A stretch of DNA of 8,901 nt from an uncultured Mycoplasma sp. (GCA_964430785.1 CAYSFJ010000014.1:13856-22756); one strand, 5' to 3'. Shown: positions 1,726 through 8,290, counted from the first letter of the stretch. Program-made: numbers and translations. Notes: a model not told the origin generated them from the sequence alone.

Positions 1726-2901
1726 CTACCCTTCACACACATCTTTATTTTCATCATACTCTATAGGATCATATATAGTGCCCATAAAATAAATATTGTT
1801 ACTTCCCTTTTTTCTAATTAAATATACAAATGGTTTATCAAAATTGACATATTTTATTTCCTCAACAGTGGCAGAACTAGTACCATAAGTATTTCCAGTA
1901 GCCGCAGCTGCTTTAGTACCTGTTTCCATAAAATCTATATAAGTTTTTTGTATTATACTGCTAACATAAATATCATCTGCTATACCTTTTAAATTAGCTT
2001 TTTCTTTATCAAACATATCTTTAACTCCAAGATTTAATAAAATACCTTCTAAATTATCTACAACATATTCATATTTAAATCTAGGTATTGCTATCTTTGC
2101 ATAATCACTTGTAATAGAATTATTTATTACATCATTTGACAAATTATTAATTACATCACTAACATCATTTTTAGGAAGAAGTGCTATAAATTCAAATTGT
2201 GTATCATCAGAAAGTTTTTCATAATTTTTAATAAATCCAGTATAATAATCACTTTCTATATATATTTCTTCAGAGGACATCATATAAACATTTTTATCTA
2301 AAAATTTACCATTATATGTTTTATTACAATCAAAAGTATCTTCCCATTTAAAATTAATACCAATAGCATTTAACAAAGCCATGACAGTATCAGAGTTAAT
2401 ACTTTCATCCGAAAATAATTGATTTATCATTCCATATGTCTTTTGAGAAACCCAATTATTTATATTACTGACATTATCAAAATTATCATATATTAGCTCA
2501 CTATAATAATTAATTTTTAATGCATTACTATATGAACTATTAATATCATTTTTATATTTATTATTAATCCAGATACTATTAGCCATTGATATTTTACCTT
2601 CAATATTTTCCATGGCTTGTAATTCATAATTATCAAGAGCAATATTAAGTTCAGATAAAGTGTTTTCTTTTGCACCACTTTGAATCATTGATAATACATA
2701 TGCTAAAGATATTGGACTTACTAAACTATTATTATTAATATCTATTTGTTTTATAAATTTATAATCAAAATTATTATTTTTATTAACAGAAATAGTAGGT
2801 GTAGAAATTTCTTTCTTATTATGCACTATATAACCAGTTAATAAAAATATACTACATATCAAAAGAGCTCCAATTACAAATAATAATTCTTTTTTTTTCA
2901 T
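1726..2901 (-). CDS. Serpin-family protease inhibitor with N-terminal signal/membrane anchor
   Basis: 391-aa ORF. The N-terminus MKKKELLFVIGALLICSIFLLTGYIV is hydrophobic. The serpin N-terminal signature is SPISLAYVLSMIQSGAKENTLSEL. The hinge and reactive-centre loop read ETGTKAAAATGNTYGTSSATVEE, followed by FDKPFVYLIRK...IYFMGTIYDP. An AGGA RBS lies 7 nt upstream of the ATG. Confidence 0.9.
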   Translation of the reverse strand: MKKKELLFVIGALLICSIFLLTGYIVHNKKEISTPTISVNKNNNFDYKFIKQIDINNNSLVSPISLAYVLSMIQSGAKENTLSELNIALDNYELQAMENIEGKISMANSIWINNKYKNDINSSYSNALKINYYSELIYDNFDNVSNINNWVSQKTYGMINQLFSDESINSDTVMALLNAIGINFKWEDTFDCNKTYNGKFLDKNVYMMSSEEIYIESDYYTGFIKNYEKLSDDTQFEFIALLPKNDVSDVINNLSNDVINNSITSDYAKIAIPRFKYEYVVDNLEGILLNLGVKDMFDKEKANLKGIADDIYVSSIIQKTYIDFMETGTKAAAATGNTYGTSSATVEEIKYVNFDKPFVYLIRKKGSNNIYFMGTIYDPIEYDENKDVCEG

Positions 2902-2975: not shown

Positions 2976-3007
2976 AAAAAAATCGGCTTCACAAAGCGAA
3001 GCACGAT
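2976..3007 (-). terminator. Rho-independent terminator / conserved GC-rich hairpin immediately after target gene 1
   Basis: Minus strand reads ATCG-T-GCTTCGC-TTT-GTGAAGC-CGAT followed by TTTTTTT. The stem is 2982..2990 paired with 2998..3007, and the T-run is 2976..2982. It starts directly after the TAA stop at 3008..3010. A near-identical copy occurs at 6548..6573. Confidence 0.7.
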
Positions 3008-4141
3008 TTAACTTCCAAGAATTATCTTATATGGATTACCCTCAGAACCATCTCCTGATATAACATATACATTAGATTTAAGATATAAGACTGGCCTAAC
3101 TGCAAAACCGCGATACGCAATGTCGCTGTAGAGACCGCCATCGTTGTCGACGTTAACAGGGCTTGAAGCATTGTAAGCTGTCATTGTCCATTCATATCCT
3201 TTTGTAAATAACCAATTGTTTTTATAACTGCTATTCATTGCATAACCATAATCACTTGCATACATTAAACCGACCTTTAAAGTAGTACTTGTTTGACTAG
3301 TTTTTTCTTTCTCATATTGAGTTTTACCGGTAGTTGTTGATGAACTACCATCAAAACCAATATTCCAATATATCCCATCATATATCATATTATAATAATC
3401 TCCACTTGAGGCTATACCATTTTCAGTATAATCACATTTGGCAACTGGTTTATATGAACTAGTGTAACATGAATAGCAATACGCTGCACAAGTAGTATTA
3501 TTTCTACTATTAATTTGGCCTAAAAAGCATTCATTTAAATTTTTTTGAATTGTGCTTCCAACCCAAGTAGAACTAGATGTTGTATTTGCATTATATGAAA
3601 GTCCTCCTATTGAATCATTTCTTATTATTTTAACAAGTCCATTATTATTCCAAGTTGAACAAGTTCCATCGGTATTTATAGCTGTACATACTGGAGTTTT
3701 ACCAATTATTCTATAAAGCTCACCATTATACCAAATATAATTATTAGGGTTATTTCCTTTATATCTAACTCCATAATCTGATTTATATAAAAGCCCATTT
3801 CCACTTACAACTCCATCCGTACTTGTTGTATTAACTACATTAGAAAGAAGTTTAGGACTACTTGTAAATGATACATTACAACTTACATTTCCAGTAATAT
3901 TTTTAATATCTAATTTCCAATTATCAATATCCCATACTCCATCAGCATTATCACAGTTTATATCTATTTGATATAAACCTTTACTAGGAAATGTATTAGA
4001 TACTTTACCATCAACAAGTAAAGCAATAGTACTTCCATTATAACCAAATGTCTTTTTAGGTTTATTACTAATTACTAATAAAGTACATATCATTATAACA
4101 ATTAATATTGTACATATAATAATCTTCTTATTATTTTTCAT
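3008..4141 (-). CDS. DGR variable (target) protein 1: N-terminal membrane anchor, Cys-rich C-terminal putative C-type-lectin-fold domain carrying VR1
   Basis: 377-aa ORF with a TM/signal anchor KKIIICTILIVIMICTLLVI. The C-terminal module (NPNNYIWYNGELYRIIG...VGLMYASDYGYA...NNWLF..EWTMTAY) is paralogous to the one in 6581..8290. VR1 encodes ASSPVNVDNDGGLYSDIAYRGFAV. The start overlaps the stop of the upstream ORF (ATGAAAAATAA). Confidence 0.9.
   Translation of the reverse strand: MKNNKKIIICTILIVIMICTLLVISNKPKKTFGYNGSTIALLVDGKVSNTFPSKGLYQIDINCDNADGVWDIDNWKLDIKNITGNVSCNVSFTSSPKLLSNVVNTTSTDGVVSGNGLLYKSDYGVRYKGNNPNNYIWYNGELYRIIGKTPVCTAINTDGTCSTWNNNGLVKIIRNDSIGGLSYNANTTSSSTWVGSTIQKNLNECFLGQINSRNNTTCAAYCYSCYTSSYKPVAKCDYTENGIASSGDYYNMIYDGIYWNIGFDGSSSTTTGKTQYEKEKTSQTSTTLKVGLMYASDYGYAMNSSYKNNWLFTKGYEWTMTAYNASSPVNVDNDGGLYSDIAYRGFAVRPVLYLKSNVYVISGDGSEGNPYKIILGS
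3098..3170 (-). repeat. DGR variable repeat VR1
   Basis: Aligns without gaps to the TR (4558..4630, offset 1460). There are 11 mismatches, each at a plus-strand T of the TR, which is an A on the coding strand. They fall at TR positions 4565, 4571, 4572, 4580, 4584, 4586, 4590, 4594, 4602, 4608 and 4622. Confidence 0.92.
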
Positions 4142-4557: not shown

Positions 4558-4630
4558 AACTGCATAACCGTTATACGCATTGTTGTTGTTGAGTCCGCCA
4601 TTGTTGTTGACGTTAACAGGGTTTGAAGCA
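4558..4630 (-). repeat. DGR template repeat (TR), non-coding
   Basis: Coding-sense sequence is GGTGCTTCAAACCCTGTTAACGTCAACAACAATGGCGGACTCAACAACAACAATGCGTATAACGGTTATGCAGTT. In the VR frame it reads G A S N P V N V N N N G G L N N N N A Y N G Y A V. It has 25 adenines, 20 of them in 10 AAC/AAT codons. It matches both VRs except at adenines. It begins 32 nt after the RT stop codon. Confidence 0.92.
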
Positions 4631-5724: not shown

Positions 5725-6088
5725 AGTCTATCTTATTATCTAACCATTTATTACACATTCGATTTATTTCAGACAACTTATATGAAACTTTTTTTAATGA
5801 TGTTTCAGCAATATAACCTTTAATAAATAATCTTTCTATAATGTAATCAATAGTATTTATAAGTGCATTTATTTCTACTTTATATGAACTTATTAATTTA
5901 TAATTATCTTCATTATTAGTTTTATTTATAAAATACAATAATTCTATAGATAACTCCTTTAATTTATTTTTATAAAAATAATCTTTTTTAGGAATATTTT
6001 CTATTATCTTATCTAGAATATTCATAAAATCTTTATACTTAGTTAGTATTAAAAATTCTTTAGATGATGCATTATTTTCTAAGTTCAT
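5705..6088 (-). CDS. avd: Avd (accessory variability determinant), four-helix-bundle family
   Basis: 127 aa, a typical Avd size, located directly upstream of and overlapping the RT. ILTKYKDFMNILDKIIENIPKKDYF resembles the Bordetella phage bAvd segment ending in IPRKH (from memory). LSEINRMCNKWLDN resembles the bAvd C-terminal helix. The C-terminal tail is basic. Confidence 0.8.
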   Translation of the reverse strand: MNLENNASSKEFLILTKYKDFMNILDKIIENIPKKDYFYKNKLKELSIELLYFINKTNNEDNYKLISSYKVEINALINTIDYIIERLFIKGYIAETSLKKVSYKLSEINRMCNKWLDNKIDYDSKNK

Positions 6089-6392
6089 TTTCTATTAAAC
6101 CTATTATTTGTTCAAGTTTTTCATTTGAGCATTTATTTAAATTATCAATTAAATAATCTAATCTTTTCCTTTTATCTAAATTTTTTAATGCTAAATCTAA
6201 ATATTTTGGATAATTATTTAGTTTATCAAAATTCTTAATAACAGGATTTTTATCTACCTCAATAATTTGATAAGATATTTTAGCATCTTCCAAAGTATTT
6301 AAAACTTTTACTAAACTATTATCAGGAAATCCACATAAACCATCTTTGAGTACCTTATAACCAAATAGTAAATTCATAATATAAGCATCCAT
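6072..6392 (-). CDS. MutS-domain-I-like (MSL-like) DGR accessory protein; the ORF as called is 5'-truncated by a frame break
   Basis: LLFGYKVLKDGLCGFPDNSLVKVLNTLEDAKISYQIIE matches the pattern of MutS domain I (LLDISLTKRG...[29 protein letters not shown]). The homologous reading frame continues upstream of ATG 6392 (…NVKSFLILYKNHGKFYQCRD-MDAY…) with no start codon until a TAA at 6468..6470. An RBS-preceded ATG at 6510 lies in a different frame. Confidence 0.7.
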   Translation of the reverse strand: MDAYIMNLLFGYKVLKDGLCGFPDNSLVKVLNTLEDAKISYQIIEVDKNPVIKNFDKLNNYPKYLDLALKNLDKRKRLDYLIDNLNKCSNEKLEQIIGLIENELRK

Positions 6393-6444
6393 ATCTCTAC
6401 ATTGATAAAATTTACCATGATTTTTATAAAGTATTAGAAATGAC

Positions 6445-6495
6445 TTTACATTAGTACCCCCCCGACTTTACATTTTCTTTACATTCATTTACATT
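6445..6495 (-). repeat. Four phased copies of the octamer TTTACATT (minus strand AATGTAAA)
   Basis: Copies lie at 6445..6452, 6467..6474, 6478..6485 and 6488..6495, with spacings of 22, 11 and 10 nt. The first two extend to an 11-mer, gactttacatt (6442..6452 and 6464..6474), and they flank the homopolymer. Confidence 0.6.
6457..6463 (-). repeat. C7 (minus strand G7) homopolymer at the frame break of the MSL-like gene
   Basis: Plus strand reads gtaCCCCCCCgac. It is the longest G/C homopolymer I noticed in this very AT-rich window. Losing one G would join the ATG-6510 frame to the 6072..6392 frame. Confidence 0.9.
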
Positions 6496-6540
6496 TTTAA
6501 ATAAGCTCATTTTTTTCCGTCCTTTCAAATTATTTATTTT

Positions 6541-6573
6541 TTTCAAAATCGGCTTCACAATGCGAAGCACGAT
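6541..6573 (-). terminator. Conserved GC-rich hairpin / weak terminator after target gene 2
   Basis: The hairpin is the same as at 2982..3007, with a single loop difference (a2995 versus t6561). The stem pairs 6548..6556 with 6564..6573. Only about 4 T residues follow on the minus strand, so read-through into the MSL-avd-RT operon is plausible. Confidence 0.5.
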
Positions 6574-6580
6574 TTATTAT

Positions 6581-8290
6581 TTACATTCCCAATACGTATG
6601 GGCTTGCCATTGTTCCATCACCAGACAATTTATTAACATTAGATTGAAGATACAAGACTGGCCGAACTGCATAACCGATATACGCATAGAGGTTGTTGAG
6701 CCCGCCACCGTAGTAGACGTCAACAGGGTGCGAAGCTCTGTAAGCTGTCATTGTCCATTCATAACTTTGACCAAATAGCCAATTATTAACCATTTGACTA
6801 TTAGCACTTCCATAACCCAAATTTCCAGTATAACTACTTATAGCATAGCCAAAATCGCTTGCATACATAAGTCCTACCATAGTATTTTCTGAAGTTTGTT
6901 TTGTTATCTCTTTAGCATAAAAATTACTTGAAGATAAACTATATGAATTAGCCATTCCAATGTTATAATAAACGCTTTCTATTATAGTACCATAACTATC
7001 ATTTTCATTAATACCATTTTGTGAATAATTACATACACCTTGATTAGTTGAATATGCATAGCAATATTTTGAACAACCATCTTTTTTACCTAAATAACAT
7101 GTATTTAAAAGTCCTTGAATACTGCTTCCATTCCAAGTTGAATTACCGGTTATATTGTAAGCATATGCTCCGATTGGATCAGCTTTAATAATTTTAACTC
7201 TATTTTCCCATTTAGTACACTGTGCTTCACCTTGTTTAAATGATATTCCGTCAATTGTAGTATCCTCAGTGATAGGATTAACCTCTAAACATACTGGTAC
7301 ATAACCAATAATTCTCCACAACTCATTATTAAAATATACATAATTATTTGGATTATTACCTTGATATCTATATTGATTTGTATTATTATCTGTTACATTA
7401 GTTATTACACCATCCCCAGATGTACCAATACCATTTATAATAACATCTGATAAAAGTGTACCAGTTACATTACTAGATGTAATAAGTGATGCACTTGCAC
7501 CATCATTTGCACCATTTTTAATTGAAATCATTTTATTAATATTATCCCACTCAATATCCGAAGAATTAATGCCACTTAAACTAGATAATGAATAATTACT
7601 ATTAGGATTATTATATGGATCTTGGGCAACATTTATATTTATTTGATTTACTGGTTCAGTTTGATAACAAGTAATATTTGTCACATTAAATACTCCAGAA
7701 TATTTTTTATTCTTTAAATTAGATTGATCATATGCTAAATTATAAAATTTAGTATTTATAGTCCAGTTATGTACTGAAGTGCTACCTTTTTTAGAATTAG
7801 ATATTTTTGCATTTTTTACTACAGTCATATTTGCTGAAGGAAAATCATCCTCACTTAAAAATTCATTACTACCCACTTCTGGACCTATAACTTGTAATGT
7901 AAATTCTTTAAAAGTTCCACTTGTTTTCGTAGTATATTTATCTGAAGAACTATCATAAGTAAAATTAATATCATAAGTACATGTTATTCCTACTTTATCA
8001 CTATTAGCATCTAAACTTACATTTAACATGCTTGTGCTACTAGCAATATAATTTGAACTAGTTTCCTCAGTCATATTGTATGGATCAACTGTTATTGAAA
8101 AGTTTGTTGATGTAGTATCAAGTACAGCATTATCTATTTTATTTGCAGTAATATTAACGTTCATAACATTATTTAAATTTACATCAAACATTCCTAAGTA
8201 TCCAAAAGATACCGTTATGGCTAGTACTAATGTAATTATAATTGATAATATTAATACTTTCTTCTTATCATCTATTTTCTTCATAATCAT
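6581..8290 (-). CDS. DGR variable (target) protein 2: membrane anchor, long N/S/T-rich ectodomain, Cys-rich C-terminal putative lectin-fold domain carrying VR2
   Basis: 569-aa ORF with TM anchor VLILSIIITLVLAITVSFGYLG. The C-terminal module (NPNNYVYFNNELWRIIG...VGLMYASDFGYA...NNWLF..EWTMTAY) is paralogous to target 1. VR2 encodes ASHPVDVYYGGGLNNLYAYIGYAV. The true start is probably the second ATG (8284), because the AGGA RBS is only 2 nt from ATG 8290 but 8 nt from ATG 8284. Confidence 0.9.
   Translation of the reverse strand: MIMKKIDDKKKVLILSIIITLVLAITVSFGYLGMFDVNLNNVMNVNITANKIDNAVLDTTSTNFSITVDPYNMTEETSSNYIASSTSMLNVSLDANSDKVGITCTYDINFTYDSSSDKYTTKTSGTFKEFTLQVIGPEVGSNEFLSEDDFPSANMTVVKNAKISNSKKGSTSVHNWTINTKFYNLAYDQSNLKNKKYSGVFNVTNITCYQTEPVNQININVAQDPYNNPNSNYSLSSLSGINSSDIEWDNINKMISIKNGANDGASASLITSSNVTGTLLSDVIINGIGTSGDGVITNVTDNNTNQYRYQGNNPNNYVYFNNELWRIIGYVPVCLEVNPITEDTTIDGISFKQGEAQCTKWENRVKIIKADPIGAYAYNITGNSTWNGSSIQGLLNTCYLGKKDGCSKYCYAYSTNQGVCNYSQNGINENDSYGTIIESVYYNIGMANSYSLSSSNFYAKEITKQTSENTMVGLMYASDFGYAISSYTGNLGYGSANSQMVNNWLFGQSYEWTMTAYRASHPVDVYYGGGLNNLYAYIGYAVRPVLYLQSNVNKLSGDGTMASPYVLGM
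6665..6736 (-). repeat. DGR variable repeat VR2
   Basis: Aligns without gaps to the TR (offset 2107). There are 12 mismatches, all at TR coding-strand adenines: TR positions 4571, 4581, 4583, 4584, 4594, 4601, 4602, 4605, 4608, 4614, 4623 and 4624. Homology ends at TR 4629/4630. Confidence 0.92.

Follow-up and report, generated by a model that had tools for sequence, protein, structure and literature searches.

A DGR locus with a split msl gene

The window, by which we mean the whole stretch of DNA analyzed here, is 8,901 nt long with a G+C content of 24.9%, and it carries a DGR whose msl-avd-RT genes, TR, and VRs all lie on the minus strand (Table 1). Its features follow the order target1 - hairpin - broken msl - avd - RT - TR - 89-aa ORF - target2 - hairpin - serpin, with msl beside avd and the reverse transcriptase gene (RT) and without an HRDC gene in the cassette. 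The order target - msl - avd - RT - TR - 89-aa ORF - target recurs in relatives. Because the RT matches Pfam RVT_1 and the TR/VR mismatches fall exclusively at TR adenines, the locus is a genuine DGR. Neither avd nor RT has a ribosome-binding site of its own: avd starts within the 3′ end of msl, which it overlaps by 17 nt, and the start of RT overlaps the end of avd by 20 nt. The element is chromosomal and not phage-borne; it adjoins rimP-nusA-infB in the relative L002, and the Msl alignment retrieved no relatives from IMG/VR. Its host belongs to an uncultured low-GC lineage of gut Bacilli. Related contigs were drawn from metagenomes of the human gut and from MAGs that bear the label "Mycoplasma sp. 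CAG:472" or "Bacilli bacterium."

Table 1. Positions of the features of the DGR locus, counted from the first nucleotide of the window
Feature	Position	Strand	Basis or remarks
VR 1, 3′ end of target gene 1 (8290..6581)	6665..6736	-	12 differences from TR, 12/12 at TR adenines
GC-rich hairpin AATCGTGCTTCGC-ATT/TTT-GTGAAGCCGATTT	6546-6574 and 2980-3008	-	Shortly after the VR of each target gene
Shine-Dalgarno-like GAAAGGACGG	6517..6526	-	6 nt (six A's) before the leader ATG; kept in relatives as GAAAGGAAGG
Leader ORF, OFF state: MSLFKNVNECKENVKSGGY, then stop	6451..6510	-	ATG 6510-6508, 19 codons, TAA 6453-6451
Three tandem copies of AATGTAAAG-type unit, period 11 nt, NVK codons	6466..6497	-	TRF; immediately 5′ of the tract
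G7 homopolymeric tract, proposed slipped-strand switch	6457..6463	-	Sequence read and length comparison in relatives
Fourth copy of 11-mer AATGTAAAGTC	6442..6452	-	3′ of the tract; another copy at 6474-6464
Conserved N-terminal Msl coding segment TNVKSFLILYKNHGKFYQCRD	6393..6455	-	No start codon of its own here; includes GKFYQ
Rest of msl frame from first ATG, 106 aa if translated	6072..6392	-	ORF call
avd, 127 aa	5705..6088	-	Pfam bAvd, E 4.9e-07, 30.7 bits, below the 40-bit gathering cutoff
DGR reverse transcriptase, 353 aa	4663..5724	-	Pfam RVT_1, E 1.2e-16
TR (template repeat), 25 adenines	4558..4629	-	TR/VR comparison
Small ORF, 89 aa	4131-4400	-	Between TR and the second target gene
VR 2, 3′ end of target gene 2 (4141..3008)	3098..3169	-	11 differences from TR, 11/11 at TR adenines
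Serpin, secreted	1726-2901	-	Pfam Serpin, E 5.9e-60; directly downstream of the DGR

The first gene of the msl-avd-RT string is split between two reading frames. The leader ORF opens at the only clear ribosome-binding site within the string, runs through the G tract, and stops shortly thereafter. The main Msl frame is open from 6467 (SRGGTNVKSFLILYKNHGKFYQCRD...) and has its earliest ATG, GTG, or TTG at 6392. The initial annotation had described this layout from the same sequence, and recomputation returned the leader ATG at 6510, its TAA, the G7 run, the 11-mers, the frame open from 6467, and the lack of a start before 6392; its Shine-Dalgarno sequence and start were likewise correctly placed, and only the 7-nt spacer between them had to be corrected to six A's. 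Removing one G in silico, which had been anticipated to join the frames into a protein of about 150 aa, yields a fusion of 145 aa, and removing 22 nt yields one of 138 aa. G7 is the sole G/C run of at least 5 in the window, the next longest being a single C4; by our own estimate, about 0.007 G/C runs of at least 7 would be expected in 8.9 kb at this composition. The motif AATGTAAA is also enriched in the window (8 observed versus 2.8 expected), which is explained by the 11-nt periodic array of NVK codons; nothing that we found marks it as a protein-binding site.

A scan of the window for promoters and terminators gave nothing beyond the shuffle expectation except the post-VR hairpin, on the opposite strand. 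The two hairpins that follow the target genes are contained in 32-mers that are 97% identical and are stable in RNA folding, and they resemble the post-VR hairpin/cruciform elements of other DGRs. Equivalent GC-rich hairpins occupy the matching position in a pig-gut lineage and in a lineage whose Msl is only ~40% identical. In target gene 2, outside the VR, ten substitutions are packed within 55 nt (3401-3455) between the window and the otherwise 99.7% identical contig L012; this cluster resembles a short patch of recombination, or else another variable spot. On longer contigs, a DUF87 ATPase gene comes next after the serpin gene.

The 89-aa ORF has no Pfam match and may be an uncharacterized DGR-associated gene. 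Its counterpart in the ~40%-identity lineage encodes 87 aa (L083, 6112-6375) and also lies between the TR and the second target. The initial annotation had taken this ORF for a paralog of the broken gene, a relationship that finds no support by BLASTP (E 0.5) or hhalign (probability 0.4%). The argument from its length in favor of a 22-nt deletion in msl falls with this paralogy. One JGI protein of 225 aa (P0172) has an N terminus like the 89-aa ORF followed by an Msl-like part.

Msl and its conserved N-terminal segment

The predicted product of the broken gene matches the MSL (MutS-like) accessory class of DGRs, architecture D (Wu et al. 2018, PMC5758913), a class also present in the Bacteroides Bfr, Bth, and Bun DGRs (bioRxiv 10.1101/2024.11.15.621889). 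Like known Msl proteins, it is small, is encoded beside avd and RT, co-occurs with avd, and shows similarity to MutS domain I, although here the similarity to MutS_I lies below the Pfam threshold: the repaired window Msl matches this profile with an E value of 0.0078 and 16.9 bits, under the 20.6-bit cutoff. Subthreshold MutS_I matches were obtained for 8 of 11 relatives, and PF01624 is present as a precomputed annotation in homologs that are 45-52% identical. When the PDB sequences were searched with a profile, no meaningful match emerged. The AlphaFold2 model, built from an 11-sequence alignment, was of low confidence (pLDDT 53), and a Foldseek search of the PDB with it returned nothing significant, the MutS chains ranking 11 and 34 with probabilities of 0.38 and 0.30. 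Since neither the structure nor the PDB searches gave a significant match, the Msl fold assignment relies on weak sequence evidence. In the literature searched, we found no test of Msl function in any DGR, nor was a homopolymeric tract or phase variation of msl described in the papers searched. Host MutS lowers DGR mutagenesis 5- to 10-fold in B. ovatus, and because of this suppression a MutS-domain accessory factor such as Msl could plausibly act as a modulator of DGR output.

The best-conserved part of Msl across lineages that are 62-69% identical is the segment before the internal Met, which aligns with the N-terminal part of Pfam MutS_I. In the protein alignment, the motif Y-K-N-x-G-K-x-Y ahead of this Met is invariant across the same lineages. 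In E. coli MutS, the N-terminal part of domain I contains the mismatch-contacting motif G-D-F-Y-E, and the corresponding region reads GKFYQ in the window Msl. Because the most conserved motif, FLILYKNHGKFYQ, precedes the internal Met, this alignment implies that a functional Msl must start upstream of ATG 6392. Residues 1-24 of the AlphaFold model, i.e., the leader and tract tail, have a pLDDT below 30 in a model that is poor overall; since this tail is predicted to be disordered, in-frame changes in the number of Gly residues should be tolerated. The msl gene calls in related contigs are mostly truncated to 101 or 106 aa. Gene callers have shortened msl in this way in hundreds of contigs, which means that the gene is systematically misannotated in this clade.

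Length and reading frame of the G tract in related loci

To place the window allele among its relatives, the tract was compared in about 80 related metagenome or MAG loci, all of them consensus contigs. Its length ranges from G5 to G11, and interrupted tracts (G6AG3, G4AG, and AGGAGGA) also occur. Within the strain group of the window, defined by an identical Avd, six other assemblies carry G7 (five) or G8 (one), the window itself being G7. The G8 contig, L013, shares 99.9% identity with the window across 5,007 nt and differs from it by 4 SNPs in addition to the extra G, so the tract changes within the time of a handful of SNPs. Ten contigs encoding an identical 106-aa product have G6, G7, G9, G10, or interrupted or GGTGG-type spacers. 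Over the 800 nt that follow the tract, 83 pairs of loci have no mismatch, and 13 of these pairs have different tracts, as do all of the pairs with 1-2 mismatches (22/22). In an alignment of 32 distinct sequences, nucleotide diversity in the tract window (0.24) is on a level with that of the VR (0.25-0.33) and well exceeds that of most of msl/avd (mostly 0.01-0.1, with a few windows up to ~0.18). The 3-4 nt directly 5′ of the run are hypervariable too (AAAGTC, AAAGCC, AAAATC, AAATCC, AAAACC, and AAACCC in L024-L033), and such flank variants distinguish contigs with no difference in the following 800 nt. Because the flanking bases vary as well, the variation is not pure length slippage, and short-tract recombination or mutagenesis of the SSR flank may contribute to it.

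The tract is retained over large distances. All 56 G/C runs of at least 6 found in 376 kb of fetched related loci are the msl tract (56/56). In a lineage with 68% identity, G8 occupies the same codon position, following ...GATAATGTAAAATC, and the 11-nt NVK array is present too; the ~40%-identity lineage has G7 (TCGA-G7-TAT) in the same operon layout; genomes with an uninterrupted tract in these deep lineages have a G+C content of 25-27%. By their N termini, the proteins of the ~40%-identity lineage form three classes (with 30, 10, and 9 cluster representatives), which correspond to the three frames upstream of the tract. In this lineage, L083-L092 (~4000-4080) have a start codon in every frame ahead of the G tract, and their gene calls give full-length Msl with three N termini (152, 141, and 145/164 aa), a ribosome-binding site being present only at the 145-aa GTG. 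This arrangement could represent N-terminal switching and not a strict ON/OFF choice. At the protein level, several other Msl lineages hint at the same position through a Gly run in the equivalent place of the N-terminal tail.

We then examined how tract length sets the reading frame. In the lineage of the window (TC-Gn-T-ACT), G6 or G9 places the leader in frame with Msl (ON), and G7 and G8 do not (OFF); the window allele, G7, is therefore OFF as read in silico. ON alleles read MKLFKNVN.CKDNVKSGG(G)VTNVKSFLILYK, in which the leader forms the N-terminal tail of Msl. Across relatives, in-silico translation identified in-frame variants of G5, G8, G9, and G11 and out-of-frame alleles of G6, G7, G8, G9, and G10. 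OFF readings end 2-4 codons past the tract with the peptides ...GGY and ...GGVLM, the stops that close both out-of-frame readings being supplied by the fourth 11-mer copy and the TAC-TAA junction. In OFF alleles, the downstream Msl frame is still open and highly conserved. A frame-unbiased sample was obtained from scans with a short downstream anchor and comprised 24 loci, of which 5 were in frame, 2 had a substitute start, and 17 were out of frame (2 of these 17 counted by hand). The resulting ON fraction of ~21% is no different from random, and a neutral tract would give the same.

Some alleles have replaced the run altogether. The GGTGGTGG allele creates a new in-frame ATG (ATGAAAACC...) and represents 2 of the 24 unbiased loci. 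Such "locked" alleles have GGTGGTGG in place of the G run in human gut contigs (L002-L011, L019, L044, and L057) and GTAGGGGTAG in pig gut contigs (L074-L082). In these, ATGTAAA has become ATGAAA, which puts an in-frame ATG inside the leader ORF and turns the leader into an overlapping upstream ORF; this alternative-start arrangement recurs in two lineages, from human and pig gut, that are only ~64% identical. Locked-OFF or degenerate alleles (AGGAGGA, G4AG, and ATGTAAACCCTAGGTGGTGG) were also found. In L068-L071, a TGA replaces TAC in the Msl tail, ~60 nt upstream of the YKNHG motif. Since the stored protein has Trp at this position, the gene caller used genetic code 4, and the TGA reflects a nonsense mutation or, alternatively, an artifact of code assignment in the Logan gene calls.

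The state of the tract was also compared with that of the downstream genes. Nine of 10 OFF loci have an intact avd (127 aa) and RT (353 aa); in L063, where a degenerate AGGAGGA stands in place of the tract, avd and RT are broken as well. A lineage fixed at G8 (L034-L043; ON, with an msl of 146 aa) has its RT split into 33 aa and 286 aa (or 195 aa) in 10 of 10 contigs from different samples, and is apparently a dead DGR with msl and avd intact. In the strain group of the window, two G7 (OFF) contigs differ from the window by 11 VR changes, and because all 11 fall at TR adenines, retrohoming must have taken place recently in a lineage whose sampled alleles are all OFF. This would mean that the tract was then ON, that retrohoming can do without full-length Msl, or that slippage yields enough protein.

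The G tract as a candidate phase-variable switch

These observations are best accommodated if the G7 tract works as a slipped-strand contingency locus and gates the production of full-length Msl, with the window captured in the OFF state, a reading that we regard as probable, though well short of certain. Slipped-strand mispairing during replication would alter the number of Gs, and one length class in three would connect the leader ATG and its ribosome-binding site to the Msl frame. With the other two, the leader would terminate soon after the tract, leaving the Msl segment that contains FLILYKNHGKFYQ without a start. Switching would be frequent and reversible inside a population, and the OFF state would reduce or abolish functional Msl. 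Since the sole ribosome-binding site is at the leader and the genes overlap, loss of msl translation could in turn lower avd and RT translation. The coupled avd and RT genes are thus probably gated by the tract as well, in which case OFF would reduce Avd and RT through lost translational coupling and the switch would gate DGR mutagenesis. The tract has the marks of a contingency locus in that it exceeds the expectation from composition, differs in length between near-identical strains, and toggles the frame in silico. The ON/OFF switch put forward in the initial annotation is accordingly upheld in part: the tract is conserved, its length is hypervariable in near-identical strains, and both frames exist, the effect on the frame being computed in silico.

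An unstable yet neutral tract has to be weighed against this proposal. Full-length Msl would then be dispensable or in the course of being lost, and OFF alleles would be tolerated frameshifts or incipient pseudogenes. The near-random frames (5 ON among 22 tract alleles), the DGR-type VR changes inside an all-OFF strain group, the occurrence of the locked-OFF or degenerate alleles AGGAGGA, G4AG, and ATGTAAACCCTAGGTGGTGG, and the broken RT of one ON lineage would all fit such drift. It would not, however, readily explain why an uninterrupted run of 7-11 Gs persists at the same codon position down to ~40% identity in genomes of 25-27% G+C, with no comparable run in 376 kb of flanks, or why OFF alleles keep an open and highly conserved Msl frame. 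Uninterrupted runs in deep lineages, conserved open OFF frames, and intact avd and RT in 9 of 10 OFF loci favor a maintained switch, as does the fact that L063, where the tract has decayed, also has a broken avd and RT. We consider neutral drift unlikely, while still giving it some weight; the data fit a maintained switch rather than decay.

The two frames might also be joined during decoding, by RNA polymerase slippage or by +1/-1 ribosomal slippage on GGG-GGG, with tract length tuning expression. Transcriptional slippage at homopolymers is established, and G runs of 7-11 are long enough for it in principle. A +1 shift of tRNA-Gly from G2-4 to G3-5 would enter the Msl frame in the G7 allele, and such a bypass would account for VR turnover in the all-OFF lineage. 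Programmed sites, however, have a fixed length and frame, and the fixed +1 frameshift site entertained in the initial annotation is contradicted by orthologs with runs of 5 to 11 in frame 0, 1, or 2. No conserved stimulatory structure or Rfam family was found at the tract: the sole stable local stem-loop in an RNA fold of 6420-6600 is the post-VR hairpin (z -2.2), and an Rfam scan of the window gave only subthreshold snoRNA noise, with nothing near the tract. Moreover, some lineages have exchanged the run for GGTGGTGG and a new in-frame ATG, a replacement that suggests that the frameshift does matter. Decoding bypass is for these reasons quite improbable, and there is a similarly small chance that nonprogrammed slippage leaks some product.

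Two further options from the initial annotation fared worse. A homopolymer sequencing or assembly error masking an intact G6 gene would be conceivable given that homopolymers are error-prone and that one same-strain Logan contig has G8. Yet G7 is repeated in five further, independent assemblies of the window's strain group, for which separate samples and two pipelines (ENA MEGAHIT-style k141 and Logan contigs) were used, G6 is found in no same-strain contig, and related lineages show consistent lineage-specific lengths. Because of this recurrence, we take G7 to be real and an error to be very unlikely. It is even harder to credit that a recent insertion or duplication of 22 nt (the 11-mer plus GGGGGGGTACT) inactivated an msl whose ancestor lacked the unit. 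Its deletion does repair the frame, and the 11-mer is directly repeated, but alleles without the unit, for which the initial annotation had recommended looking, number 0 among ~80 related loci, and every relative keeps the second NVKS copy. The unit is a normal part of the N-terminal tail, as the KSGG(G)(V)TNVKS encoded by in-frame alleles shows; the 11-mer is one member of an older NVK array with a period of 11 nt, which the 68% lineage has as well, and the support drawn from the length of the 89-aa ORF fails.

If the tract is indeed a phase-variable switch, stochastic switching of msl, together with the coupled avd and RT, might split a population into target-diversifying and target-fixed cells, and selection might have kept the tract in several DGR lineages of gut Bacilli, to ~40% Msl identity. 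We put this forward tentatively, as a possibility that we hold somewhat less likely to be true than to be false. To our knowledge, DGRs are the only natural targeted protein hypermutation systems in bacteria. A heritable and probably reversible switch at the head of msl-avd-RT, if true, would bring in a further level of control and amount to phase variation of the mutator itself. The ON, OFF, and locked alleles in public metagenomes would offer a natural genetic handle on Msl function. Other DGRs have by now been reconstituted in E. coli (PMC12875486). A full-text literature search retrieved no paper linking DGRs or Msl to simple-sequence phase variation.

Poly-G phase variation itself is a well-known mechanism. 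Like the poly-G/C contingency genes of Campylobacter jejuni, Neisseria, and Haemophilus, the msl tract is a G/C run of 7-11 near the 5′ end of a coding sequence in an AT-rich genome, varies in length between near-identical strains, and shows ON/OFF states beside interrupted, stabilized alleles. It differs from them in lying in a DGR accessory gene instead of a surface, LOS, capsule, or restriction-modification gene, and in being known from consensus contigs of uncultured gut Bacilli and not from within-clone switching. Slippage and frameshifting sites such as those of dnaX and IS-element transposases share with msl two overlapping frames joined across a homopolymer; at those sites, in contrast, length and frame are fixed and a stimulatory element is usually present, whereas the msl tract varies in both between strains and such an element was not found there. 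In phasevarions, a simple-sequence repeat in a phase-variable mod methyltransferase gene gives stochastic population heterogeneity. As in these systems, the msl tract would exert an effect beyond its own gene product, but the proposed target here would be a hypermutation machine rather than a methylation-dependent regulon.
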